A stretch of 64,000 nucleotides of DNA, from assembly GCA_046704885.1 (NCBI GenBank), contig JBJKRB010000111.1, forward strand, positions 15,003-79,002, in the 5' to 3' direction. The notes below the pieces were generated by a model. The model ran no database searches and was not told where the DNA came from. It saw only the letters and a list, made by a program, of their open reading frames with translations. The translations under genes and the position numbers were made by a program. Source of the stretch: Thermoanaerobaculia bacterium. GTDB taxonomy: Bacteria > Acidobacteriota > Thermoanaerobaculia > Multivoradales > JBJKRB01. Each line of letters starts with the position of its first letter. Within the stretch, counting starts at the first letter, position 1. Shown in pieces: positions 4,870 through 30,162 of this stretch.

Positions 4870-6045
4870 TTAGTGGACGGGAGGCGGGGCGTCGCTGGGT
4901 TTCTGGGGGACCGGCGGAATCGGTTTCGCCGCGGGTGGCGGTGTTGGTGTCGACGCCGGCTTTGAGCGATCCGATTTGACGGTGCTGGGAGCCGCGGTCG
5001 CGGCGGTTTCCTTGAGCGCCGAGGCATGCTCTTGAGAGGAATCCTCAAAAGCGTTGGTGCGGTATCCCGCCGCTTCGGCGGGAGGATCGGAATAGATATA
5101 GGACTCGGCCGCGAGCTTTCTGAGGTAGACATCCAACGCGTTGCTCGCAAGCCGGTTCCTCTCCAACATCTCGATCCGCGCCTGCACCTCCTTGAACGGC
5201 TTGAGCTTCTCGTCCTTGCGTTCAAGCATTTGGACGATGTGCAAACCCCCACGGCCCTTGACCGGCTGGCTGATCTCACCAGCCTTCAGGTCCTTGACCG
5301 CCTCGGCGATCGCCGGGTCGAGATCACCGGGCTTGACCCAACCGAGGTCGATTGCCTTGCTGGTCTCCCCCGCCTTCTCGTAGTCCGCGATCGCCGCATC
5401 CATCGCCCGCCCCTGCACCAGGCGATTGCGGATATCGGTCGCGATCTTTTCCTGCTGCTCCGGGGTCATGCCGTCGCCGCCGAGAACGACGACCTCGCGC
5501 AGATGCATCTCGGCGGGTTCGGTGAACTCAGCGTGATGCGCGTCATAGTAGCCGCGAACCTCTTGCGGCGTCACCTTGATCTTCGATCCGACCTCGCGCG
5601 CTACGACCTCGTGAATCACCAGGTTACGCGCCACCTGTTTGCGGAACTGGGCTTCGGTCATTCCGCTCTGGGCGAGCGCGGCGCGGAATTGCTGGTCATT
5701 GGTTATGCCGAAGTTCTTCCGTGTTTCCTCTACCGCCTGGTCGATCTGCGTCTGATTGGCGTGGATGTCCATCTGGTCTGCGCGGGAAAGGAGGAGCAGC
5801 TCCTGATAGATGTCGCGCATGGTGGCAACCGGCGTGTCCTCCGTGAGCTTTTCTCGCTGCTCATCGCTCAAGTTCGGGGCCCGGCGCAGGGCCGCGAGCC
5901 GGTCCGCCTTGCGCTGCTGATAGTCGAGCAGCGTCGCGATCCGATCATTCACGCGCAGGACGATCCGGTCGACATCGACGCTCGCAAAGAGCGGGAGCGC
6001 GGCGAGGCTCAAGAGGACAAATAGAGCAATCAGCTTACGATTCAT
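4870..6045 (-). CDS. SurA-like periplasmic chaperone / parvulin-type peptidyl-prolyl isomerase with Pro-rich C-terminal tail
   Basis: 391 aa with a signal peptide (LLSLAALPLFA) and a SurA_N-like region. A rotamase segment is present (IDLGWVKPGDL...GEISQPVKGRGGLHIVQ). The tail reads PTPPPAAKPIPPVPQKPSDAPPP. Confidence 0.8.
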   Translation of the reverse strand: MNRKLIALFVLLSLAALPLFASVDVDRIVLRVNDRIATLLDYQQRKADRLAALRRAPNLSDEQREKLTEDTPVATMRDIYQELLLLSRADQMDIHANQTQIDQAVEETRKNFGITNDQQFRAALAQSGMTEAQFRKQVARNLVIHEVVAREVGSKIKVTPQEVRGYYDAHHAEFTEPAEMHLREVVVLGGDGMTPEQQEKIATDIRNRLVQGRAMDAAIADYEKAGETSKAIDLGWVKPGDLDPAIAEAVKDLKAGEISQPVKGRGGLHIVQMLERKDEKLKPFKEVQARIEMLERNRLASNALDVYLRKLAAESYIYSDPPAEAAGYRTNAFEDSSQEHASALKETAATAAPSTVKSDRSKPASTPTPPPAAKPIPPVPQKPSDAPPPVH

Positions 6046-6067
6046 CGACCCTTCCTGTCTCTCTTAC

Positions 6068-6888
6068 TCAAAAGCTGCCGCGGTAGGTAAACGGTAGGTT
6101 CTTGCGAAACACCTGGACATTGTACCGGTGTTCCGCCTCGCTGAACAGCCTCGCCAGGGCCTTCTTGCTCTCCTGCCCGCGCAGAAGCGCCGCGATCTCC
6201 GGAGCAGCCTCGCTCATGGGCTCACGCCCCGCCGGCCATCTCTTGCTGACCTCAAACAGGTGGAAGCCGTACTCGGCGGGAACGACGGCGCTCACCTCAC
6301 CCACTTTCAGGGCGAAGATCACGGTAGCGAAGGCGGCGGGAAGGTCGCTCCTCGACAGGACGCCCTGGTCGCCGCCATAGGGCGCGCTCGGATCGCGCGA
6401 GATCCGCTTCGCCACGTCCTCGAACTTGCTGCCGGCGAGAATCTCCTTGCGGGCCTTTTCCGCAACCGCACGGTCGCTGGTGAGAATCTGGAAGAGATGG
6501 ACCCGCTCGGGGCGCTCGAAATCGCCCTCATGCTGCTTGTAGTAGGCCTCGATTCCGCCAGGCGAGGGGGCCCACCCCTTCTCCTGCGCTAGCAGGCTCT
6601 CGGCCGCCTTGCGCGCATCGCTGTCCGGAGCCACGAGATTCCGGTCCACCGCCAACCGCAGCAAGAGCTGTTCGCGTAAGAACTCATCGAAGAGCTCCGA
6701 CAGGAGCTCGTTCGACAGCGGCCCAGCGCCGCTCGCGTTGCGCGCCAGATAGACCTCGAAGCGAGCATAGGGCACCGCCTGCTCGCCGATCAGAGCCGCC
6801 ACCTCGGGTCCGGGAGGAACGCGCCGCCCGCATCCGCTCGCAATCAGGGCGAGCAACGCAACCCCGGATATCGCGAGCGCCAGCCTTC

Positions 6889-6892
<4 letters not shown>
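6068..6892 (-). CDS. Parvulin-type peptidyl-prolyl isomerase lipoprotein (PrsA/PpiC-like)
   Basis: 274 aa with a lipobox (LIASGC) and a rotamase segment (GGDQGVLSRSDLPAAF...GEVSAVVPAEYGFHLFEV). Confidence 0.8.
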
Positions 6893-10323
<3,431 letters not shown>

Positions 10324-15589: not shown

Positions 15590-15667
<78 letters not shown>

Positions 15668-15785: not shown

Positions 15786-16028
15786 ATGATCATGAGCGAC
15801 GAGCCCGCCGACCCCGGGGCGAATCCAGCCCCAACCCTTTCGTTTATCCGCCATGAGCTGATGACTCCACTCAACCAAATCATCGGCTACAGCGAAATGT
15901 TGAAAGAGGATGCCCAAGACCAGGGCCTCGAGGAGATGGTCGCCGATCTTGACAAGGTGCACCAGGCGGCGCGCGAGCTAGTCAAGATGGTGCAGACCTA
16001 CTTGGCTTCTCTGCCGGCTGCCGATTGA
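15786..16028 (+). CDS. Stand-alone HisKA (DHp) domain protein with no ATPase domain
   Basis: 80 aa with an H-box ([24 protein letters not shown]) followed by a second helix (DLDKVHQAARELVKMVQTYL). A GGGAGG RBS lies upstream. The true start may be the second ATG at 15792. Confidence 0.7.
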   Translation: MIMSDEPADPGANPAPTLSFIRHELMTPLNQIIGYSEMLKEDAQDQGLEEMVADLDKVHQAARELVKMVQTYLASLPAAD

Positions 16029-16888: not shown

Positions 16889-17260
16889 TCAGCCGTTCTT
16901 GCTTAGCTGGTTTTGGATCTTCTCGAGCAAGCGCGGCAGCTCGACCGGCTTGGTGTCGTAGTCGTCGCACCCAGCCTCAAGGGTCTTCTGGCGATCGTCC
17001 GACATCGCGTGTGCGGTCAGGGCGATCACCGGAATCGAAGAGGTCGCCGGATCGTCCTTGATCTTGCGCGTCGCCTGCCATCCATCGAGCACCGGCAAGC
17101 TCATGTCCATGAGAATGAGGTCGGGCTTGTCGCTTGTCGCCTTGTCCACGCCCTCTTGTCCATCCACGGCGACAACGACTTCGAAGCCCTTGCGCTGGAG
17201 CCGGCGCGAGAGCATGTCACGGTTCATCTCGTTATCTTCTACGAGCAAGATTTTCGCCAT
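16889..17260 (-). CDS. Single-domain response regulator (CheY-like receiver)
   Basis: 123 aa with the receiver signature residues: ILLVEDNEMNR, LILMDMSLP (phospho-Asp), ALTAH and DYDTKP (Lys). Confidence 0.95.
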   Translation of the reverse strand: MAKILLVEDNEMNRDMLSRRLQRKGFEVVVAVDGQEGVDKATSDKPDLILMDMSLPVLDGWQATRKIKDDPATSSIPVIALTAHAMSDDRQKTLEAGCDDYDTKPVELPRLLEKIQNQLSKNG

Positions 17261-17278: not shown

Positions 17279-19741
17279 TCATTGACTCGCGCGCTTGCCT
17301 GGCTTCCCGGCGCAGGCGCGAACGAGCTCCGTAATTTGTTTAACCATCTGCTCCGGACTGTAGGCGGTCTTCTGCACCACTCGCTCCACGTTGCCGTTGA
17401 GGCGAGCGCGGTCCTCCGGGGTCAGGTCCTTCGCGGTTACCACGACGACCGGTACTGCCTGTTGATGCTCGAGTTTGTGGAAACGCTCAAGGAACTCGAA
17501 TCCGTCCATCTCCGGCATCATCAAGTCTAGAAGAACGACGTCGGGATCCTTGTCCTTCAGCTTGTCGAGGGCGTCGCGGCCATTCACGGCTTCGACCGTC
17601 TCCCAACCGATCTGTTGGACCGCGCGGCACAGAAGGCCGCGGGCCGTTGGGTCATCTTCGACCACGAGCGCCAGACACCCGGCCCCGTCCTTGCTCAAGC
17701 GGGCGAGCAGGCTTGCCAGCCTCTTTCGGTCGATCGGCTTGGTCAGGTACTCGGTGGCTCCCAACGCAATTCCCATTTCCCGATCATCCATCATGGTTAC
17801 CATCACCACCGGAATCTCAGCCGTATCGGGATCCTTCTTCAGTGCCTCGAGAACCGCCCAGCCATCCATCCCGGGCATTACGACATCGAGCGTGATGGCG
17901 GCTGGATGCAGGGCCCGCGCCTTTTCCAGGCCTTCCTCTCCTCCCTCCGCCATCGCCACCCGGTACCCCTCTCGCACCAGAATCCTCTGACCGAGCTCGC
18001 GCGCCGCCGGATCGTCGTCGATGACGAGAATCAAGGGGCCCTCACCCGCGGTCACCGCCGCCTCGATGGCCTGCGCTACGGCTCCGGCGGAGTCTTCCTC
18101 GACCTCGGCGGGCAGCTCGACGGTGAACGTCGATCCTTTGCCCTCCTCGCTCGAGACCTGAATGTCCCCTCCCATCATGCGGCAGAAGCGACGCGAGATC
18201 GCCAGGCCCAACCCAGTCCCGCCAAAGCGCCTGGTGGTCGAGGCATCCGCCTGGGTGAACTCTTCGAAGACCTTGCCGACCTGCTCCGCAGTCATCCCGA
18301 TCCCGGTATCGGAAATCTCGAACACCAGCCAGGGTCTGTCGTCCCGCAGGAGCCGGTGCACCGAGAGCGACACAACGCCATGATCGGTGAACTTCGAGGC
18401 GTTGCTCAAGAGGTTGAACAGGGTTTGACGAACCTTGGTCTGGTCGGCGTGCATCTCGCCCAGACCGTCGGGCACGTCTGACTCGAGACGATTCTCGTTG
18501 CGGTCGATCAGGGGTTGAATGGTGGTGATCACCTCATCGACGAGCTCCCCAGCATCGAAGGTCTCGAGGAAGAGCGTCATCTTCCCCGCTTCGATCTTCG
18601 AGAGATCCAGAATGTCATTGATCAGGGACAGGAGGTGCTTGCCAGCGGCTCTAATCTTCTTGAGATCGCCGACGAAATCGTCGAGCCCCATATCTCCGGC
18701 ATCCTCGAGGAGCATCTCGCTGTAGCCGATGATCGCGTTCATCGGGGTGCGCAGCTCGTGGCTCATATTGGCCAGAAACGTGCTCTTCGCCCGATTTGCC
18801 TCCTCCGCGACCTGCCGAGCCGCTTGCGCCGCCGCCGTCGTCCGCGCCAGCTCCTCCTCATGACGCTCCAACGCCGCGTTGGTCGAGATCAGGCGACTGC
18901 GAGTGGCCCCCAGTCTCTCCGCCATTTCGTTGAAGGCCTTCCCCAGCTGGCCGAGCTCGTCGGCGCCATGGCTGGGCACCCGGTGGCTCAGATTGCCGGC
19001 GGAGATCTCCGCGGCGCCCTTGCGCAAGGCGCTCAGCCCCTGGTTGAGCTGGCGCGAGAAGAGGTACGCCAGGGCCAGGGCCAGGAGCGCGGAGAGAACG
19101 AAGATCAGCGTGCTCCAGCGCGCTGTGAACCGCGCCACCTCGTAGGATCGAGAGGTGGCGGCCGTGATCCTCTCCTGCTCTTCCTTTTCCAGGTGGGATA
19201 GCGCTTCGAGGACCCTCTGGCTCAGCACCGCCACGCGCTGCCCAGCGGTGGTGGGGGGGTGCTTGGCCGGCGGCGCCACTTCCGGGCCACTCGTCGCTCC
19301 AGCCGTGGCGGCGTTCTCGGCCGTGGTCTCCGTACCCGGCGCAAGAGGAGGTTCCGCTGCCGCTGCCGACCAAGCCTTTGCGAGGTCGTCATAGAGGTGC
19401 GCGAAGCTCTCGAGTCGCGGCCGGTCTTGCTTGGCCGCGTGACGTATGAGTTGAGTAATCTCCTCCCGCGTCGCCGCGACATGCGCGGCGAAGGCGGTCC
19501 TCTGGTCGGCGCTGACGCTCCCGGCGTTGGTCTTGAGCAGCGCGAGTACCGCGGCCTGTTTGATCCTCTTGTCGATCTGTTGCGCGATCCCGTTCAATCG
19601 CATTCGCTGATCGACCGCATGGGAGAGGTCGGAGATCGTCTGGTCGCGACGGGCCGAGCCCCAAAGAAAAAGGGCGAGATTTGCCGCGCAGAGAAACAGA
19701 ATGCCGGCCAGGGCAAGAGCCAGGCGCCGGCGGACCGTCAC
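17279..19741 (-). CDS. Hybrid sensor histidine kinase (TM sensor-HAMP-HisKA-HATPase_c-REC-REC)
   Basis: 820 aa with a GTG start and a GTGA overlap with the upstream gene stop. It has a HAMP domain ([16 protein letters not shown]), an H-box ([22 protein letters not shown]), N and G boxes ([24 protein letters not shown]) and two receiver domains. Confidence 0.95.
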
Positions 19742-21441
19742 GGCGCGGCCTCCGGCGGCTGCGCAGGCACGAGCTTCGCGATACGCGCTTCGACCTGCGG
19801 GGGCAAGGAAGTGAAGTGGATGATGGCGTTACCTTCCTCGGCCGCGCGACGGCCGAGAACCTTGGCATAGAAGTCGGCTCCCTCCGCGCCATCCGATTCC
19901 CCGTCACCGCTGAACCGCAAGCGCAGATTCGTCATCGCCGGCGGTAGGTTCGGGCCGGCAATCTCCGCCTCGCGGTGGGATAGGCGGGTGATCTCGCCCT
20001 TGTGAGCCTGCCCTGACGAATCCTTGCCACTGACGGTGAAGTACTCGACGGCCAGCCTCGGGGAGAGATCGCTCATCGAATCCTCGACTCGCCTCAGCTC
20101 GAGCCCCGCTTCTGGAATTCCGCCCACTTCATAGAGAGTGATCGGCGCCCCAACGCCCTTGGGCTGGACCTCGATCGTTCCGTCGACGCGGACCTTGTCA
20201 CCGACGGACTCGATGGTTTGCGCGGAGGCGAGAATCTGCCCGCCGACCGTATAGGACTCGATCCGCGAGGTGAGGTTGACGTTGCTCCCCACGACGCCGT
20301 ACTTGGTCCGCTTCTCCGACCCGATGTTGCCGACCACAACGTCGCCCGTGTTGATCCCGACGCCCATCTGCACCTCGGGCAATTCCGCCTCGCGATTCAT
20401 CCGATTGACGTCGGCGATGGCGAGCTCCATCTTCAGGGCGCACTCGAGCGCGGCGCGCGCATGATCGGGCCGGGGAACGGGAGCGCCGAAGAGGACCAGG
20501 ATGCCGTCGCCCTGGAACTCGTCGACCGTGCCCCCTGCCTCCCCGATGACGTCAGCCATCGTGCCGAGGTAGTTGTTAAGCATGGCGACAACCTGCTCAG
20601 GCCGCAGGCGTTCGGAGAGCGAGGTGAAGCCTCGGAGGTCGGCCATCAAGATGGAGATATTCCGCTTCTCTCCTCCGAGCTTGAGACCGTCTGGATTCTC
20701 CAACAGGCTGGCCACCACTTGATCGGTGATGTAGCGCCCGAAAATCTGCCGAATCATGCTATTGCGAAGCTCGAGCTGGCGCGCCAGCAAGGCGCTTTGG
20801 CCTATCGCCCGCTTGAGCGCGATCTGCGCTTCGCTGCGCGCTCGCACGATGGCGAAGTCGATCGGCTTCGTCACATAGTCGTTCGCCCCCTTCTCCAAGG
20901 CCTGAACGACATCCTCGCTCTCGCTCTTCGCGGTGACCATGATGACCGGGAGCTCGCCTCGGCTGCGCGTCTTGCGCACCGTCTCCAACACCTCGAGACC
21001 ACTCATCCCGGGCATCATGACGTCCAGCAGAACCAGGTCGATCGGCGGCTCATCGGCGTCGATCTTCTTGAGAGCCGAGGGTCCGTCGGCGGCCATCTCG
21101 ACTTCGTAACCTTGCCGCTTGAGCCGGCGGGAGAGTACGTCCCGATTCATCTCGTTGTCGTCGACAACCAAGATGGTGGCCGCTTTCTCTTCCTCTTCTT
21201 CGGCTCCCTCTTCCTCGCTCAGGGCATCCGGTGATTCGAGCAGGCGGTCGATGAGATCGAGGATGCGCCGAGCGGCGCTCTCAATCTTCCCTAGATCGGT
21301 TGCATAGTCCGTCTGTCCGTCGCTGGTGAGCTCCTCTTGGAGAAGCTCGCTGTAGCCGATGATCTGGCTGATAAGCGTGCGCAGGTCGTGGCGCAGGCGA
21401 ACAACCGTGCCGAGACTCACGCCCGCCGCTCCCTTCGGCAC
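19738..21441 (-). CDS. HisKA-like(DHp)-REC-class III nucleotidyl cyclase fusion with PilZ-like C-terminal region
   Basis: 567 aa. It has an N-terminal H-box-like helix ([22 protein letters not shown]) with no ATPase, and a receiver ([11 protein letters not shown]...LLDVMMP...YVTKP). The cyclase core motifs are [23 protein letters not shown] and [12 protein letters not shown]. The last ~110 aa form an uncertain beta-rich domain. Confidence 0.9.
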
Positions 21442-21559: not shown

Positions 21560-23434
21560 ATGGCAAATCGAGACGATGGCGGACACGACGATACTAGGGG
21601 GCGCGACTGGCGCCAGCGAGCGGTCTCAGCGAGCCAAGCCGTGGCCCTCGTTCAGCCCGGCGACCGGGTCTTCCTAGGATCCGCCTGCGCCACGCCGCGC
21701 GTGCTCATACGGGCTCTCGAAGAGAGCGACGAACCGCTCGCCGACGTCGAGCTCGTTCACTTCCTCACCGACGGCGCCGTGCCAGTATACGATGCGGGGC
21801 CGATTACTCGTTTCCGCCATCGAACGTTCTTCGTGGGGAGCGACATGCGCCCGCTGGTCGCCTCCGGCCAGGCGGACTACGTGCCCGTCTCTGCGCGCAG
21901 CGCCACCCAGCTGATTCGCCAAGGGAAGCAACCAGTCGATGTCGCCTTTCTCCAGGTGACACCTCCCGATGAGAATGGCCGCGTCAGCCTGGGGATCTCG
22001 GTAGACATGGCGTTGGCCGCAGTCGCGGCGGCGCGAAACATCGTCGCCGAGATCAATCCCAACATGCCGCGAACGAGCGGGGAATCGAGCTTCGACCTCG
22101 CGGCGATCGACCGCTTCGTCGTCGTCGACGAGCCGCTCATCGAATACCTCCACCCCGCCGCCGAGGAAGTTGCCGAGAAAATTGCGCGTTACGTCGCTCG
22201 TCTCATCGACGACGGGGCGACGCTGGCAATCGGCCTGGGCAGGATTCCGAACGAGATGCTCAAGTATTTGACGAATCGCCACGACTTGGGCATTCACTCG
22301 GACGTCATCACCGAACCCTTGGTCGATCTGATCGAGGCGAAGGTGGTCAGTGGGAAGCGCAAGGCCCTGCATCCGGGCAAGGTAGTGGCGAGCTACGCGA
22401 TGGGAACCCGGCGTCTCTATGATCTGATGAACGACAATCCCCTCTTCGAGCTGCGGCCAATCGACGAAGTATCCGATCCTGAGGTGATTGCCAGCAACAA
22501 CGGGATGGTGGCCGTAACCCAGGCCTTTGCGATCGACCTCACGGGTCAGGTCTGCGCCGACCAGTTCGAGGGCGAGTTCTACAGTGGCGTTTCGACGCAG
22601 AACGAGTTCCTGCGCGGAGCCTCCGCTTCTCCGGGTGGCAAGGCCATCGTCTGTCTCACCTCGACAACCGACGACGGCAAGGTTTCGCGGATCCGGCCCT
22701 TGCTCAAGGAGGGTGAAGGGGTGGCGGTCGCGCGCTCCGACGTCCACTTCGTGGTGACTGAGTATGGAAGCGCATACTTGTTCGGCCGCTCGATTCGGGA
22801 CCGCGCCCTCGCTCTGATCGAGATCTCCCACCCGGAATTTCGCCAAGAGTTGCTCGAGGATGCACGGCGACTGGGATACGTGAGCGCCGAGCAAACGCTC
22901 AAGAGCCGCCAAGCCTACCCGCAAGAGGAAGAGCGCGACGTGGGCCTCTCCGACGGCCAGGTCCTTCGCCTCCGGCCAACCCGGGCAAGCGACGTGCGTG
23001 CGTTTCAGCAGCTCTTCCATGACCTGCGCCCGGAAGACATCTACACGCGCTTCTTCACGAATTTGCGGTCCCTGTCGGAGAACAAGGCCCAGCACCTATG
23101 CAACGTCGACTACGAGAACGAGATGGCTTACGCCGCGGTAACCGGGGACATGGACAAGGAGGAGATGCTCGGAAGCTGCTGCTATTTCGCCGACCCCTCG
23201 ACCCGACTTGCCGACGTAGCCTTCATGATTCACCCCGACTATCAGGGCAAGGGTTTGGGAACCGTGCTCGTCCAGCAGTTGATGGAGTACGCCCGCCGGC
23301 AGGGCCTGCGGGGCTTCACCGCGGACGTCCTCAGCGAGAACAAGCCCATGCTCAGGGTCTTCGAGAAGAGCGGCGCAAAAATTGAGACCAAGCTGGAGTC
23401 TGGAGTCTTTGAGGTAACCCTCCTCTTCCAATAG
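21560..23434 (+). CDS. Acetyl-CoA hydrolase/transferase family domain fused to a C-terminal GNAT acetyltransferase
   Basis: 624 aa. The N-terminal ~440 aa resemble 4-hydroxybutyrate/acetyl-CoA CoA-transferases (GSACATPR, EINPNMPRT, VVTEYG). The C-terminal ~170 aa show a GNAT signature (IHPDYQGKGLGTVLVQQLMEYARRQG). Confidence 0.85.
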   Translation: MANRDDGGHDDTRGRDWRQRAVSASQAVALVQPGDRVFLGSACATPRVLIRALEESDEPLADVELVHFLTDGAVPVYDAGPITRFRHRTFFVGSDMRPLVASGQADYVPVSARSATQLIRQGKQPVDVAFLQVTPPDENGRVSLGISVDMALAAVAAARNIVAEINPNMPRTSGESSFDLAAIDRFVVVDEPLIEYLHPAAEEVAEKIARYVARLIDDGATLAIGLGRIPNEMLKYLTNRHDLGIHSDVITEPLVDLIEAKVVSGKRKALHPGKVVASYAMGTRRLYDLMNDNPLFELRPIDEVSDPEVIASNNGMVAVTQAFAIDLTGQVCADQFEGEFYSGVSTQNEFLRGASASPGGKAIVCLTSTTDDGKVSRIRPLLKEGEGVAVARSDVHFVVTEYGSAYLFGRSIRDRALALIEISHPEFRQELLEDARRLGYVSAEQTLKSRQAYPQEEERDVGLSDGQVLRLRPTRASDVRAFQQLFHDLRPEDIYTRFFTNLRSLSENKAQHLCNVDYENEMAYAAVTGDMDKEEMLGSCCYFADPSTRLADVAFMIHPDYQGKGLGTVLVQQLMEYARRQGLRGFTADVLSENKPMLRVFEKSGAKIETKLESGVFEVTLLFQ

Positions 23435-23446
23435 CATCCCGCTGTC

Positions 23447-25711
23447 TTGACAACCACCGGACAAGAAGGGCACGCAAGGGCACAGGCCGCTCGGACTCTG
23501 CTACGCCGTCTCTTCGGCGAGCGGGTCGCCGACCTCGACAGCTCCACCGAAGAGCAGATCATCGCTGCGACCTCCGTGATTGATCTGGCGGCGGGCGAGA
23601 CCTTGGTGCGCAAAGGAGAGGACGCCGATCGGCTCTTCCTGGTGCAACAAGGCAAGCTCGAGGCAGTCATCGAGCGTCGCGACGGCGGTGATCAGTTTCT
23701 CGCGGCCATAGGCCCCGGAGACCTGATCGGAGAGGTCGCTCTGCTGGCTGGCGGAACTCGCTCCGCCACCGTTCGCGCCGCAACCCCCTGCCGTCTGACC
23801 GCCCTCGCTCGCAGCGCGTTCGCGGATCTCGTCGCCAGACATCCCGAGATCAGCGCTCCCTTTGTCTCGGCCATAACCGAACGCTTGCGGCATTCTCAGG
23901 TTACGACCTACCTGACTCGGCTCTTTGGCCCGATGAGCGCCGAAACAGTGGCCGACATGGAACGCGAGGTTCGGTGGCGCACTCTTACCAGCGGCGAGGT
24001 TCTGTGTCGCGAGGGAGACCCCGGAGACTGCGCCTACATCGTCATCAGCGGCAGGCTCCGAGTCACGGTCGCGCGGCCAGACGGCAGCGAACGCGTCGTC
24101 AACGAGGCCGGACGCGGCGAGATCATCGGGGAGATGGCGCTGCTCACTGGAGAGCCGCGCTCCGCGAGCCTCTACGCCATCCGAGATACCGACTTGGCCG
24201 AGGTCTCCCGCTCGGGTTTCGATCGGCTGATGAGGAGGTACCCGGAAGCGCTGGTGCAGATCGCGCGCCTCATCGTCAGTCGCTTGCAGCAACAGACCAA
24301 AGCCACTGGCGGCGAGCCCAACACTTTGATCACGCTCGCGGTCGCCCGCGCCGGCTCGCGAGTCTCGACGGGCCGTTTGGCGGAAGAGTTGGCCGCGGCC
24401 CTATCTGCCCACGGTGAAACGACGATCCTCACTTCGAGCTCCGTCGACCACGCCCTCGACCGTCAAGGGATCGCTCAAATTGGAGAGAGCGACCCCGGCA
24501 ACATTCGCCTGGTCCAATGGCTGAGCTCGATCGAGAACCGCTTCCGCTACATCATCTACCAGGCCGACGACGAGCTCAGCCCCTGGACGCAGCGCTGTTT
24601 GCGCCAGGCGGACCGCATCCTCTGGGCGGCGGAAAGCGGTGATGATCCGGCGCTGTCATCCCTTGAGGGCGGCGCTTCCGAAGCGTGGCAGGACCGACCC
24701 ATGCCCCCGTCGAGCCTGGTCTTGCTCCACCCGGACGATGGTAGCGAGCCGCGGGGAACAGCGCGTTGGCTCTCGTCCCGGAACGTCGAAAGCCACTTTC
24801 ACCTACGCCTTGGCTCAAAGCGGGACATCGAACGGCTCGCACGCACTCTCACCGGAAGAGCGGTCTCTCTGGTCCTAGGCGGCGGGGGCGCGCGCGCAGC
24901 CGCCGACCTTGGAGTCCTGAGAGCCCTTGAGGAAGCACAGGTGTCGGTCGACCTCGTGGGCGGCACCAGCATGGGGGCGATCATGGCGGCCTTTGTCGCG
25001 ATGCGCCTAAGCTCGCAAGAAGCGACGAGGACCTGTGAGCGCCGCTTCGCTTCGCTCTTCGACTACACCCTCCCCATCGTCGCGCTGCTCGCCGGGCGCA
25101 GGATCTACCGCCAACTGTCCGCCACCTTCGAGGATCGTTCCATCGAGGACCTCTGGCTTCCCTACTTCTGCGTATCCACGAGCCTGACCCGCGCCGAGCA
25201 GCACATTCACCGGAGCGGCGCTCTAGTCGAGGCGATTCGCGCCAGCATCTCGCTGCCTGGAGTAATGCCTCCGTACCACTGGCAAGACGAGCTCTTGATC
25301 GATGGGGGCCTCCTCAACAACCTCCCGATCGACGTGATGCGCTCCCACAATCATGGCGGCCAGGTGGTCGCCGTCGACGTGACACCCGAGGTCGACATCA
25401 TGGCGTCGGCGGATCTCCCGCACGCGGTGTCGGGCTGGAGCCTTCTGTGGCGCCGCCTCAATCCCTTCGCGCAAGCCGCGAGCGTTCCTCACATTCTGAA
25501 CTTGCTCACCCGGGCGACAGTGGTCCCGAGCATCCATTCGAGAGGCCAGGCACTCGAGAACTCGATGGCCGACCTCTATCTGCGAATCCCCGTCGAAGAC
25601 TGGAAGCTCCTCGATTTCTCGGCGCTTGGGGAGATCGCGCAACGCGGATTTGATGCCTCGTGGAAGGAGATTCGGGCGTGGCGGCAAGACCTCGCGAAGC
25701 AAGGGCTTTGA
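23447..25711 (+). CDS. Patatin-like phospholipase with two N-terminal cyclic-nucleotide-binding domains (NTE-like)
   Basis: 754 aa with two phosphate-binding cassettes (GEVALLAGGTRSATVRA and GEMALLTGEPRSASLYA). The patatin motifs are GGGGARAAA, GTSMGA (GxSxG) and IDGGLLNNLP (catalytic Asp). Confidence 0.9.
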   Translation: MTTTGQEGHARAQAARTLLRRLFGERVADLDSSTEEQIIAATSVIDLAAGETLVRKGEDADRLFLVQQGKLEAVIERRDGGDQFLAAIGPGDLIGEVALLAGGTRSATVRAATPCRLTALARSAFADLVARHPEISAPFVSAITERLRHSQVTTYLTRLFGPMSAETVADMEREVRWRTLTSGEVLCREGDPGDCAYIVISGRLRVTVARPDGSERVVNEAGRGEIIGEMALLTGEPRSASLYAIRDTDLAEVSRSGFDRLMRRYPEALVQIARLIVSRLQQQTKATGGEPNTLITLAVARAGSRVSTGRLAEELAAALSAHGETTILTSSSVDHALDRQGIAQIGESDPGNIRLVQWLSSIENRFRYIIYQADDELSPWTQRCLRQADRILWAAESGDDPALSSLEGGASEAWQDRPMPPSSLVLLHPDDGSEPRGTARWLSSRNVESHFHLRLGSKRDIERLARTLTGRAVSLVLGGGGARAAADLGVLRALEEAQVSVDLVGGTSMGAIMAAFVAMRLSSQEATRTCERRFASLFDYTLPIVALLAGRRIYRQLSATFEDRSIEDLWLPYFCVSTSLTRAEQHIHRSGALVEAIRASISLPGVMPPYHWQDELLIDGGLLNNLPIDVMRSHNHGGQVVAVDVTPEVDIMASADLPHAVSGWSLLWRRLNPFAQAASVPHILNLLTRATVVPSIHSRGQALENSMADLYLRIPVEDWKLLDFSALGEIAQRGFDASWKEIRAWRQDLAKQGL

Positions 25712-27597: not shown

Positions 27598-30162
27598 ATG
27601 AGGATCCGCACCAAGTTCTTGATTATCTTCTGGGCGCTCTCTCTCGCGCCCCTCTTTGCCTTGGGCCTGCTCGGCTATCTCAAGGGTGAAGAGCTCATCC
27701 GGCAACACCTCGGTTCTCTCTTCCAGCAGAAGGCGGAGGTCGCGACGCTCGACATCGATCGCGAGCTCTACACCCTGTTCCAGACGACTCAGGGTTGGGG
27801 AAGCCTGCAGGTTTTACAGCAGGGGGTGGCGAGTAATGACGTCGACCTCGGGATCCACCTCTTCTTGCACGCTCGTGGCCAAGAGTTTCCCGACCTCGCG
27901 AGCGCCGTGGTCACGGACGATCACGGCAAGTTCATCGCCGGCTTCGATCGCCACTCCAAAGCCCCGCCACTCGATCAAGCAGAGATCGAGAAGACTCTCA
28001 AGAGCGATACGGCGATCGCGCAAGACGCCCATTGGGACCCCGAGCTCCAGATGGCGATCGTCACCTTCTATGCGCCGATTCCCGATGTGTTGTTTCCCAA
28101 GAAGGTGGCCGGCGTCCTGCGTTGCGAGTGGTCCCTTGGCGACATCTTCGGCACCGTCCAGAGACGCTTCAAGGAGATGTCCAAGAGCGGCCGCTCCGAC
28201 TTGATGATCATCAACAAGAGCGGCTTGTTGCTCTCGGCCCCTTCCGATCTCGAGTACAAGCCGTTCCAGGCGAACCTCGTTTCGTTGGGCTTCACCGCGG
28301 CAAAGGAGGCTACCGAGGCTCCGCGCGGAGGATCCGGCTACACGGCAGAGCATCTCGTTGGTGGCAAGGATTACCTGGCTGGTTTCAGCAAGGAGATCGG
28401 TTACCGCCACTTCGCCGGTTTCGGTTGGGCGGCAGTGGTCATCCAGGACACCGCGACCGCCTTCGCACCGATCTATCAGCTGCAGCGGGCCGCCAGCCTC
28501 GTGGCTCTATTGGTCCTCCTCGTCGTCGGCTTCTTCTCCTTGGTGATCGCCCGCCGTATGAGCCTCCCGGTGGTAAGGGTCTCGAAGGCCGCGGAAAGGG
28601 TGGCGCAGGGCGACTTCGAAGTGGAGATCGCGGCGGGAAGCCACGACGAGATCGGCACCTTGATCGCGGCCTTCAACAAGATGGTACGCGACCTGCGCGG
28701 GCAACGTTCCCAGCTCGTCGACAAGGACTATGTGGACTCGATCATCGCCAACATGCTCGATGCCCTGATCGTCCTCACTCCGGAAGGCCAAATCAAGACC
28801 GTTAACAGCGCCACTCTGAAGATGCTGGATTACAGCGAGAACGAGCTGGTCGATCAACCCTTCCAGATCCTCGTCAAGGAACCCTGGGAGGAGGTCTCAA
28901 AGCTCGTGGTACGGCCGCCCGACGACGATGCCTCCGGTTCCACCGCCGAGGCATTTCTTGCTGACGTCCTCGGTCGCCAGGACGAGGACGACGGCGGGGA
29001 GACAAAGGCCGGCCCTTCGGAGGCGTTTCTCACCTTCATTCGGCACGACGGCAGTGAGCTTCCGGTCAGTTTTTCGGGGAGCACGCTCGTCGGTCCTGGA
29101 GGTCTTGTCGATGGGATCATCTGTATCGCCCGCGACATCACGCTGCGTAAGCAGACCGAGGAGGCCCTGCGGCAGGCGAAAGAAGCGGCGGAGGAAGCCA
29201 ACAAATCGAAGAGCCAGTTCCTGGCGAATATGAGCCATGAGCTGCGCACGCCGCTCAACGCCATCATCGGCTACAGCGAGATGCTGCGCGAGGACGCCGA
29301 GGACGCGGGCGAGGAGACGGCCGTCTCCGACCTCGACAAGGTGCTGGCGGCCGCCCGCCACCTCCTGGCGCTGATCAACGACATCCTCGACCTTTCGAAG
29401 ATCGAAGCCGGGCGTTTGGAGATCTACTGCGAGACCTTCGACCTGCAGCAGCTGGTTCGCGACGTCGTCTCCACCGTCCAGCCTCTGATCGAGAAGAACG
29501 CCAACGTCCTCGAGGTCAAGGTTGATCCCTCGATCACAGAGGTTTACGCCGACCTCACGCGCGTTCGGCAGGTCCTCTTCAACCTGCTGAGCAACGCTTC
29601 CAAGTTCACCAAGGAAGGCACGATCAATCTGGACGTCTGGCCCGAAAAGGTGGATGGGCTGGACTGGTTCTACATGCGCGTCAAGGACAGCGGCATCGGG
29701 ATGACGGAGGAGCAACTAGCCAAGCTGTTTCAAGAGTTCTCGCAAGCAGACGCATCGACCACCCGCAAGTATGGCGGAACCGGTCTGGGTCTCGCCATCA
29801 GCCGCAAGCTCTGCCACATGATGGGCGGCGATATCAAAGTGGCCAGCGAGTACGGCAAGGGCTCATCCTTTACCGTCCAGGTGCCCGCTCACGTGACGAC
29901 GGGCAAAGAAGAAACGAGCATCGAGGCCAGCAAGCCCCCGAGCCAAGGCGCGGGTTCGGTCGAGGCGACGCAAACCGTCGAAGATGAAGCCGCGAAGGTG
30001 AAAGCGGAAAGTGGTTCGAGCTCGTCGGCGGAGTCCGCGACCGACGACGACGGCAAAGAAGCGAAGGAAGAGAGCCCGGCCGAGAAAGACGCGACGCCGC
30101 AGGAAGCGGAGGAGCCGTCAGAAGCCAGCTCGGCCGCGGGCGGTAACCCGAGCTCGAGCTGA
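27598..30162 (+). CDS. Sensor histidine kinase (Cache-like periplasmic domain-HAMP-PAS-HisKA-HATPase_c, acidic disordered tail)
   Basis: 854 aa with two TMs flanking a ~270 aa periplasmic domain. It has a HAMP domain ([15 protein letters not shown]), an H-box ([25 protein letters not shown]) and [15 protein letters not shown] and GGTGLGLAI boxes. The last ~90 aa are rich in E/S/A. Confidence 0.95.

Follow-up and report, generated by a model that had tools for sequence, protein, structure and literature searches.

A gene on the reverse strand of the DNA analysed here (hereafter the window, 64,000 nucleotides of contig JBJKRB010000111.1 from the Thermoanaerobaculia bacterium assembly GCA_046704885.1) encodes a polypeptide in which a HisKA-type helical hairpin, the dimerisation and histidine phosphotransfer (DHp) element of sensor kinases, is joined to a receiver (REC), a class III nucleotidyl cyclase and a C-terminal domain with a predicted PilZ fold. 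We give even chances to the reading that this protein is the terminal response regulator of a His-Asp phosphorelay, with a Cya2-type guanylate cyclase as its output. About equally balanced, in our judgement, is the case for the hairpin as a Spo0B-like His-phosphotransfer module that is fused to its own target receiver and also dimerises the protein. The gene and its parts, in amino acids (aa), are as follows.

19738..21441, minus strand: whole open reading frame (ORF), 567 aa, in the order DHp, linker, receiver, helix with cyclase transducer element (CTE), predicted guanylate cyclase and PilZ-fold tail
21235..21414, minus strand: HisKA/DHp helical hairpin (aa 10-69), without an ATP-binding domain (Pfam and model)
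21178..21234, minus strand: acidic disordered tether (aa 70-88), from the per-residue model confidence, the predicted local distance difference test (pLDDT)
20857..21177, minus strand: receiver domain (aa 89-195; Pfam Response_reg)
20671..20856, minus strand: signalling helix (aa 196-232) and CTE with the FGRY motif (aa 234-237) (model)
20116..20670, minus strand: class III cyclase catalytic domain of Cya2 type (aa 258-442; identity to 2W01)
19741..20115, minus strand: C-terminal PilZ-fold domain without cyclic di-GMP (c-di-GMP) motifs (aa 443-567; model and Foldseek)

Pfam places HisKA at aa 16-69 (36.3 bits, gathering cut-off 26.9), Response_reg at aa 90-197 (E 2e-30) and Guanylate_cyc (PF00211) at aa 259-417 (E 3e-26; 92.4 bits, cut-off 21.9). 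NCBIfam returned only generic receiver matches, every one under its cut-off, and these were set aside. In a full-length AlphaFold2 model, built with 78 relatives and having a mean pLDDT of 85, the hairpin helices span residues 10-40 and 44-69 with pLDDT above 90. No HATPase_c domain was matched in the Pfam scan of this protein, and in the model the hairpin passes directly into a disordered linker and then into the receiver; the protein is therefore not a kinase itself. An earlier note, made from the DNA letters alone, had described a HisKA-like DHp segment with its His but no ATP-binding domain, an acidic linker and an intact receiver, and this description stands. The H-box reads RHDLRT, with His18 encoded at 21388-21390 and no sensor domain N-terminal of the hairpin, and aa 70-83 of the linker are predicted to be disordered (pLDDT below 50). 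Residue invariance was scored in the 78 relatives, and the frequencies of individual residues were counted in 120 listed relatives. On this basis the receiver residues D94, D95, D140, T170 and K192, together with the switch aromatic Y189, are invariant, the codon of the phospho-acceptor D140 being located at 21022-21024. The 37-residue helix that follows the receiver in the model (196-232) leads into the FGRY transducer element, an element defined in work on Cya2 (CTE; PMC5995499), and F234, G235, R236 and Y237 are likewise invariant.

The catalytic domain aligns without gaps to that of Synechocystis Cya2 (PDB 2W01), with 59% identity over 193 aa, and the closest solved structures are this enzyme and a phytochrome-Cya2 fusion (6FHT). 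The catalytic residues D268, R270, E308, D312, G382, N389, R393 and K428 map to Cya2 at an offset of +180, their counterparts being, in order, D448, R450, E488, D492, G562, N569, R573 and K608. The metal-binding D268 and D312, found on this alignment and in agreement with the class III core named in the earlier note, are invariant, as are the transition-state residues N389 and R393. The specificity pair consists of E308, within TVDEFQGDG (codon 20518-20520), and G382, within KYGVVG (codon 20296-20298), kept in 118 and 119, respectively, of the listed relatives. At the specificity Glu site 6FHT has a Lys, whereas the window protein keeps the wild-type Glu. In Cya2, the Glu-Gly nucleobase pair is responsible for a strong GTP preference (PMC6005667) and a single E488K change makes the enzyme an adenylate cyclase (PMC5995499). 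Because all eight catalytic residues are kept, including the Glu/Gly pair as in Cya2, the enzyme is predicted to be a Cya2-type guanylate cyclase with cGMP as its product.

Most database names of the relatives instead imply an adenylate cyclase, the sources naming them 'adenylate cyclase' or 'class 3 adenylate cyclase', and promiscuity does exist among some bacterial cyclases. These names were, however, assigned automatically. Where adenylate cyclases have a Lys/Asp(Thr) pair, the window protein has Glu/Gly, like the GTP-specific Cya2; cAMP is made among Cya2 forms by the E488K mutant only, and E308 is retained almost throughout the listed relatives, so that synthesis of cAMP appears rather improbable. 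Some Cya2-like cyclases with CHASE2 or HAMP domains, present in cyanobacteria and Thioploca (L033, L034, L043 and L047), have TINEF or TINQF and (Q/H)Y(T/S)(V/A)IG at the corresponding positions, hence Glu or Gln at the specificity Glu and Thr or Ser at the Gly. These variants may have an altered nucleotide preference.

Of the 120 listed relatives, about 117 keep the H-box His and 119 have Thr at H+4, with Asp, Glu or Gln at H+1; this pattern suggests a functional His. The hairpin lies at the extreme N-terminus of the relatives, with a median of 19 residues ahead of the His, and is followed by a low-complexity tether of 20-60 aa and variable length. As the tether is flexible and variable, the hairpin is not an in-line signal helix, and the receiver can swing onto it. 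An apparent loss of the His in 17 of the 120 proved to be an alignment artefact, caused by a subfamily of ~690-aa proteins (P0004, P0005, P0013, P0021 and others, some of them named Tectomicrobia/Entotheonellia) that have two tandem HisKA hairpins ahead of the receiver, the His being retained in the first hairpin and often replaced by Q, L, P or S in the second.

The most telling point in favour of a phosphotransferase is that an Hpt domain, a canonical His-containing phosphotransfer (HPt) domain, occupies the same slot in sister proteins. P0249 (623 aa) has the order Hpt-REC-Cya2-type cyclase-tail, and P0227 (1494 aa) has HisKA-HATPase-REC-REC-Hpt-REC-cyclase-tail and so contains a whole relay in one polypeptide. 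In both, the Hpt, located by Pfam and phmmer after a regular-expression search for Hpt motifs had been unsuccessful, sits exactly where the HisKA without a catalytic and ATP-binding (CA) domain is found in the window protein. The receiver alpha1 helix reads NEMNRDMLSRRL in the HisKA type versus Y(P/L)VNRQKL in the Hpt type. A further observation concerns a Polyangiaceae metagenome assembly (L074, 9437-11770), in which the same kind of CA-less HisKA hairpin and receiver (RHDLRTPLNQILGYSEML ... DDLPANRDMISRRL) are joined not to a cyclase but to a Ser/Thr protein kinase, so that hairpin and receiver together constitute an input module that is portable. As for L071, L076, L078, L081 and L083, the partial HisKA and receiver matches there belong to complete hybrid kinases and were not counted as CA-less proteins.

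The window also has an 80-aa ORF (15786-16028, plus strand) that consists of a HisKA hairpin alone. It retains the His, exceeds the Pfam cut-off at 37.5 bits and has an H-box helix that is nearer to the consensus of the cyclase family than to that of the kinases. This ORF may represent a separate, unfused copy of the phosphotransfer module. A search for free-standing relatives of this ORF gave only itself and one relative (88% identity, 78 aa), from the lineage in which the 88-89% relatives of the cyclase also occur, and the idea of a wide family of mini-DHp proteins was not backed and was dropped.

Downstream of the cyclase gene, the stop codon overlaps the GTG start of a hybrid kinase gene as GTGA, and a CheY gene follows. 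Both features had been pointed out in the earlier note, and the overlap was read directly from the sequence. The neighbouring genes that bear on the circuit, including one from the opposite side of the cyclase gene, are listed here.

17279..19741, minus strand: hybrid sensor kinase, two transmembrane segments-HAMP-HisKA-HATPase_c-REC-REC, without HPt; its start overlaps the cyclase stop
16889..17260, minus strand: CheY-like single-domain receiver, 123 aa, last gene of the three-gene unit, 18 nt after the hybrid kinase
23447..25711, plus strand: two cyclic nucleotide (cNMP)-binding domains, NTE P-loop and patatin phospholipase (Pfam), in the divergent operon

Neighbourhoods were compared at 18 loci, the window included. 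A hybrid kinase together with CheY is present at six of the 18 (the window, L005, L006, L011, L014 and L016), and in the latter five the hybrid kinase that adjoins the cyclase relative has two receivers, with a highly conserved single-domain receiver beside it. The loci at which relatives are flanked by this pair are from Acidobacteriota and Gammaproteobacteria. There is a hybrid kinase alone in L013 and L053, beside the Sorangium relatives, and a lone receiver in L003. The window genes scanned, from 4.9 to 43.6 kb, encode no HPt domain, and the clusters annotated in L005 and L006 are likewise without one. The CheY-like receiver of the window is a candidate for a Spo0F-like intermediate or a phosphate sink. 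Its alpha1 helix (NEMNRDMLSRRLQRKGFEV) is nearly identical to that of the cyclase receiver, which is unlike both kinase receivers in this helix, and such sharing is the pattern expected when one DHp docks both receivers. Spo0B, for example, docks both Spo0F and Spo0A. The synteny of kinase and CheY, the lack of HPt in the genes scanned and the Hpt-REC-cyclase-tail sisters fit the proposal, already made in the earlier note, of a multistep phosphorelay that ends in second-messenger synthesis. The window has a second sensor kinase at 27598-30162 (plus strand), with the order dCache-HAMP-PAS-HisKA-HATPase_c and without a receiver domain or an adjacent regulator gene. As judged from its H-box helix, IIGYSEML, which is present in both complete kinases of the window, it may feed the same receivers.

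A separate model of the tail (aa 440-567; pLDDT 85) consists of a beta-barrel and a C-terminal helix, in keeping with the full-length model in which a beta-rich C-terminal domain spans residues 457-557 with a helix at its end. When the tail model was compared by Foldseek, the top 39 matches were PilZ-domain proteins almost without exception, most at a probability of 1.0, with a best E of 2e-4 and TM-scores of 0.5-0.65; 4XRN, 4RT0, 7MIE and 4I86 are among the best, and Alg44, PlzA, the PilZ domain of cellulose synthase, YcgR and MotI are among the proteins matched. The tail of the window protein itself has no match to Pfam PilZ (PF07238) at E<=1; 19 of 32 homologous tails match it weakly (best 1.3e-6), and the assignment is thus based on the homologous tails and the predicted fold. 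A motif search of the protein found neither an N-terminal RxxxR nor [DN]xSxxG in the tail, the sole RxxxR of the protein being RLSHR (aa 486-490), within the barrel. Among the 120 listed relatives, RxxxR is present in ten and [DN]xSxxG in two, and both together in none. The proposal of the earlier note, a PilZ-like tail without the c-di-GMP motifs, is confirmed by the fold match, the weak Pfam matches and the lack of the motifs across the family.

When 1.84 billion representatives were searched with a profile of the tail, 1,741 clusters (50% identity level) gave a match at E<=0.001. The longer matches, which appear to be of full length, have the tail at the C-terminus or a few residues from it; many shorter matches resemble fragments. 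All 50 long tail-bearing representatives scanned have a Guanylate_cyc domain, combined with N-termini that include CHASE2 (8), GAF (9), HAMP (8), PAS (6) or receiver (9) domains and, in others, dCache, FHA and protein kinase domains. The tail is a constant companion of Cya2-type cyclases, whatever the sensor domain, and not a c-di-GMP receiver. Cyanobacterial CHASE2-cyclase proteins of ~745 aa carry a homologous tail, and Cya2, which is 756 aa long, ends in a 118-aa C-terminal extension described as 'structurally uncharacterized', the loss of which nearly abolishes activity and which influences the linker/CTE region (PMC5995499). We infer that the tail is a homologue of this extension and acts in cis on the cyclase.

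Given the PilZ fold, the tail might instead sense a ligand and thereby exert allosteric control over the cyclase; c-di-GMP in a non-canonical binding mode, cGMP, GTP or some other nucleotide would be candidates. The residues K473, Y525, K527, F543 and T544 of the tail are invariant and could line a pocket, and the activity of Cya2 is modulated by its extension. These five residues could as well form a contact surface for the cyclase, the two c-di-GMP motifs never occur together in the listed relatives, and PilZ-fold proteins that do not bind a nucleotide exist, PilZ proper of Xanthomonas and Pseudomonas being examples. Ligand sensing by the tail consequently seems quite unlikely; if true, it would form a connection between two second-messenger systems or a feedback loop.

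On the output side, a 118-bp divergent region separates the cyclase gene from a pair of genes that, by Pfam, encode an acetyl-CoA hydrolase/transferase-GNAT fusion and the cNMP-binding patatin listed above. This pair is present in the window at 21560-25711 (plus strand) and again in L006 at 5677-9841, beside a cyclase relative with 53% identity. The patatin gene alone is near relatives in L011 and L016, and in L004 a cNMP-binding protein kinase is encoded near the relative. As the linkage recurs near cyclase relatives, the patatin lipase is likely the reader of the cyclic nucleotide. A prediction of cGMP or cAMP preference from the Arg-Ser pair in the phosphate-binding cassette of the patatin's cNMP-binding domains was also considered, and was dropped as the same pair is present in the cAMP-specific CRP.

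Taken in order, the circuit that we propose would begin with the membrane hybrid kinase, which would autophosphorylate and pass the phosphate to a receiver, which may be either of its own two or else the adjacent CheY, the latter then corresponding to Spo0F. The kinase-less HisKA dimer would then take the phosphate on His18 and pass it on to Asp140 in the receiver tethered to it, the hairpin acting as a phosphotransferase of the Spo0B/ChpT/HPt type (H2) fused to its target (D2) and presumably also holding two chains together, as a class III cyclase requires. Receiver phosphorylation would act through the long helix and transducer element on the cyclase dimer, with cGMP as the result. The PilZ-fold tail would bind no c-di-GMP in the canonical manner and would form a cap that promotes or regulates activity in cis, like the Cya2 extension. 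The cyclic nucleotide would, finally, be read by the neighbouring patatin phospholipase with its two cNMP-binding domains. The complete sequence, a four-step relay from kinase through receiver or CheY to HisKA-His18 and Asp140, and hence to cGMP and an NTE-type patatin, with the tail as a new non-c-di-GMP use of the PilZ fold, is put forward only tentatively, and we regard it as somewhat more apt to fail in some part than to hold throughout.

Several points weigh against this scheme. The direction and route of phosphate flow in the family are inferred. The specificity residues predict cGMP without proving it, and the equivalence of the tail with the Cya2 extension is based on the relatives with CHASE2, cyclase and tail and not on Cya2 residues 639-756. 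About half of the relatives examined are without a neighbouring kinase. In L001 (7102-7998), L002 (7093-8004), L004 (7036-8004) and L008 (7984-8952), the kinase is replaced by an upstream gene for a Lactamase_B_2 protein (metallo-beta-lactamase fold) that overlaps the start of the cyclase gene. The DHp domains of kinase and cyclase share an IIGYSE(L/M)L helix, and with such similar alpha1 helices the kinase could phosphorylate the cyclase receiver and CheY directly, making the hairpin unneeded for transfer. The conserved His/Asp/Thr motif also meets the need of a receiver phosphatase, and in Dictyostelium ACR a HisKA subdomain without the His is a pure cyclase dimeriser, essential for that purpose only (PMC3009899). 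With respect to the Lactamase_B_2 partner, one possibility is a nucleotide phosphodiesterase; in P0129, the domain is fused N-terminally to HisKA-REC-cyclase-tail.

The last of these points lead to a different account. Here the hairpin would serve the cyclase as a dimerisation scaffold and possibly act as a phosphatase that resets the receiver, which would itself take its phosphate straight from the DHp of a complete kinase. Dimers are a requirement of class III cyclases, and the donor could be the neighbouring hybrid kinase or the dCache-HAMP-PAS kinase (27598-30162), as both have the IIGYSEML helix and could dock the same receivers. A REC-only relative with the same receiver alpha1 helix (P0126) also exists. 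The best-conserved part of the hairpin is the motif with an acidic H+1 and Thr at H+4, T22 being invariant, as suits a phosphatase. The Thr of the H-box is reportedly the key receiver-phosphatase residue, according to work on EnvZ and CrdS. On the other hand, the His is kept throughout nearly all of the family whereas ACR has lost it, the hairpin is joined to its receiver by a flexible tether of varying length, and the sister proteins carry a canonical HPt instead, which is neither a four-helix-bundle dimeriser of this kind nor a phosphatase. A permanently tethered phosphatase would, furthermore, oppose activation unless itself regulated. We therefore consider a scaffold or phosphatase role, the main rival, unlikely, if still a serious candidate. 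The hairpin might also belong to a split kinase, in which the hybrid kinase, co-translated with the cyclase, would use its ATP-binding domain to phosphorylate His18 in trans, the phosphate then passing from the hairpin to its own receiver. Transient docking or DHp heterodimerisation can be envisaged, the translational coupling by GTGA favours co-assembly, and the DHp sequences of kinase and cyclase are of one subfamily. Many relatives, however, are without an adjacent kinase gene, the Hpt-containing sister architectures are incompatible with this route and our literature searches retrieved no precedent, so that a split kinase is very improbable. A Spo0B-like transfer through the hairpin remains the reading that we prefer.

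The fusion had been regarded as unusual in the earlier note. This view was not sustained: HisKA, Response_reg and Guanylate_cyc are present in all 120 listed relatives, the family is large and widespread among environmental bacteria, and a HisKA-REC-cyclase fusion is not rare. The named sources of these relatives are Acidobacteriota, Vicinamibacteria and Tectomicrobia/Entotheonellia metagenome assemblies, and the full architecture is also encoded at genome loci of Sorangium, Byssovorax and Gammaproteobacteria. The source names go no further than 'adenylate cyclase' or 'response regulator', and literature searches retrieved no study of any member of the HisKA-REC-cyclase-tail family. The true start of the cyclase gene is probably the second GTG, at 21420, which would give a protein of 560 aa, as an AAGGGAG Shine-Dalgarno sequence is located 8 nt upstream and the public gene call is also 560 aa. 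A scan of 15.5-21.8 kb for promoters and terminators gave no signal above the shuffled background. At the edge of the signalling cluster there is a tRNA-Met (CAT) gene (window 15590-15666, plus strand).

If the relay is as proposed, a plain HisKA hairpin would replace an HPt, with a bearing on hybrid kinases that lack an HPt and on the annotation of 'incomplete' kinases. The locus would constitute a complete, testable cGMP circuit, with sensor kinase, relay, Cya2-type cyclase and cNMP-gated lipase, of which there are few worked bacterial examples, and its parts recur together in other phyla. The PilZ-fold assignment also provides a structural handle on the Cya2 extension, which boosts activity in optogenetic cyclases.

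Cya2 resembles the window protein in having an FGRY transducer element ahead of the catalytic core and a C-terminal extension of ~120 aa after it. Cya2 is, however, a membrane protein with an extracellular CHASE2 sensor whereas the window protein is soluble and would be controlled by a receiver and a CA-less HisKA. The extension of Cya2 is structurally uncharacterised (PMC5995499) and its window homologue has a predicted PilZ fold, the same six-stranded barrel with C-terminal helix as in PilZ domains (PF07238) such as those of Alg44, YcgR and BcsA. PilZ domains of that kind sit on effectors controlled by c-di-GMP but the window tail sits on a predicted cGMP synthase. P0249 and P0227 share with the window protein the effector of receiver, helix, Cya2-type cyclase and tail, with a His-bearing module directly N-terminal of the receiver. 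This module is a canonical four-helix HPt (PF01627) and not a HisKA hairpin, and the receiver alpha1 differs.

In Spo0B of Bacillus and ChpT of Caulobacter, the His of a dimeric hairpin shuttles phosphate between two receivers without kinase activity, and the arrangement of kinase, single-domain receiver, DHp and terminal regulator at the window locus mirrors KinA-Spo0F-Spo0B-Spo0A. Spo0B and ChpT are, however, free-standing and have a degenerate CA-like domain whereas the window hairpin is a Pfam HisKA without a CA remnant, is fused to the terminal regulator and has a proposed phosphotransfer role. ACR likewise has its HisKA subdomain, needed for activity through dimerisation, upstream of one or more receivers and a class III cyclase (PMC3009899), but with the His lost and the receivers dispensable; in the window family the His and all receiver residues are conserved. 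The CyaC proteins of Spirulina and Anabaena, with the order receiver-GAF-histidine kinase-receiver-adenylate cyclase, also combine a kinase module, a receiver and a class III cyclase in one polypeptide. CyaC is a complete kinase that has an ATP-binding domain, autophosphorylates and makes cAMP, whereas the window protein is without HATPase_c and has the Glu/Gly pair. Receiver-controlled class III cyclases are thus known, and a variant with a CA-less HisKA is added to them here.

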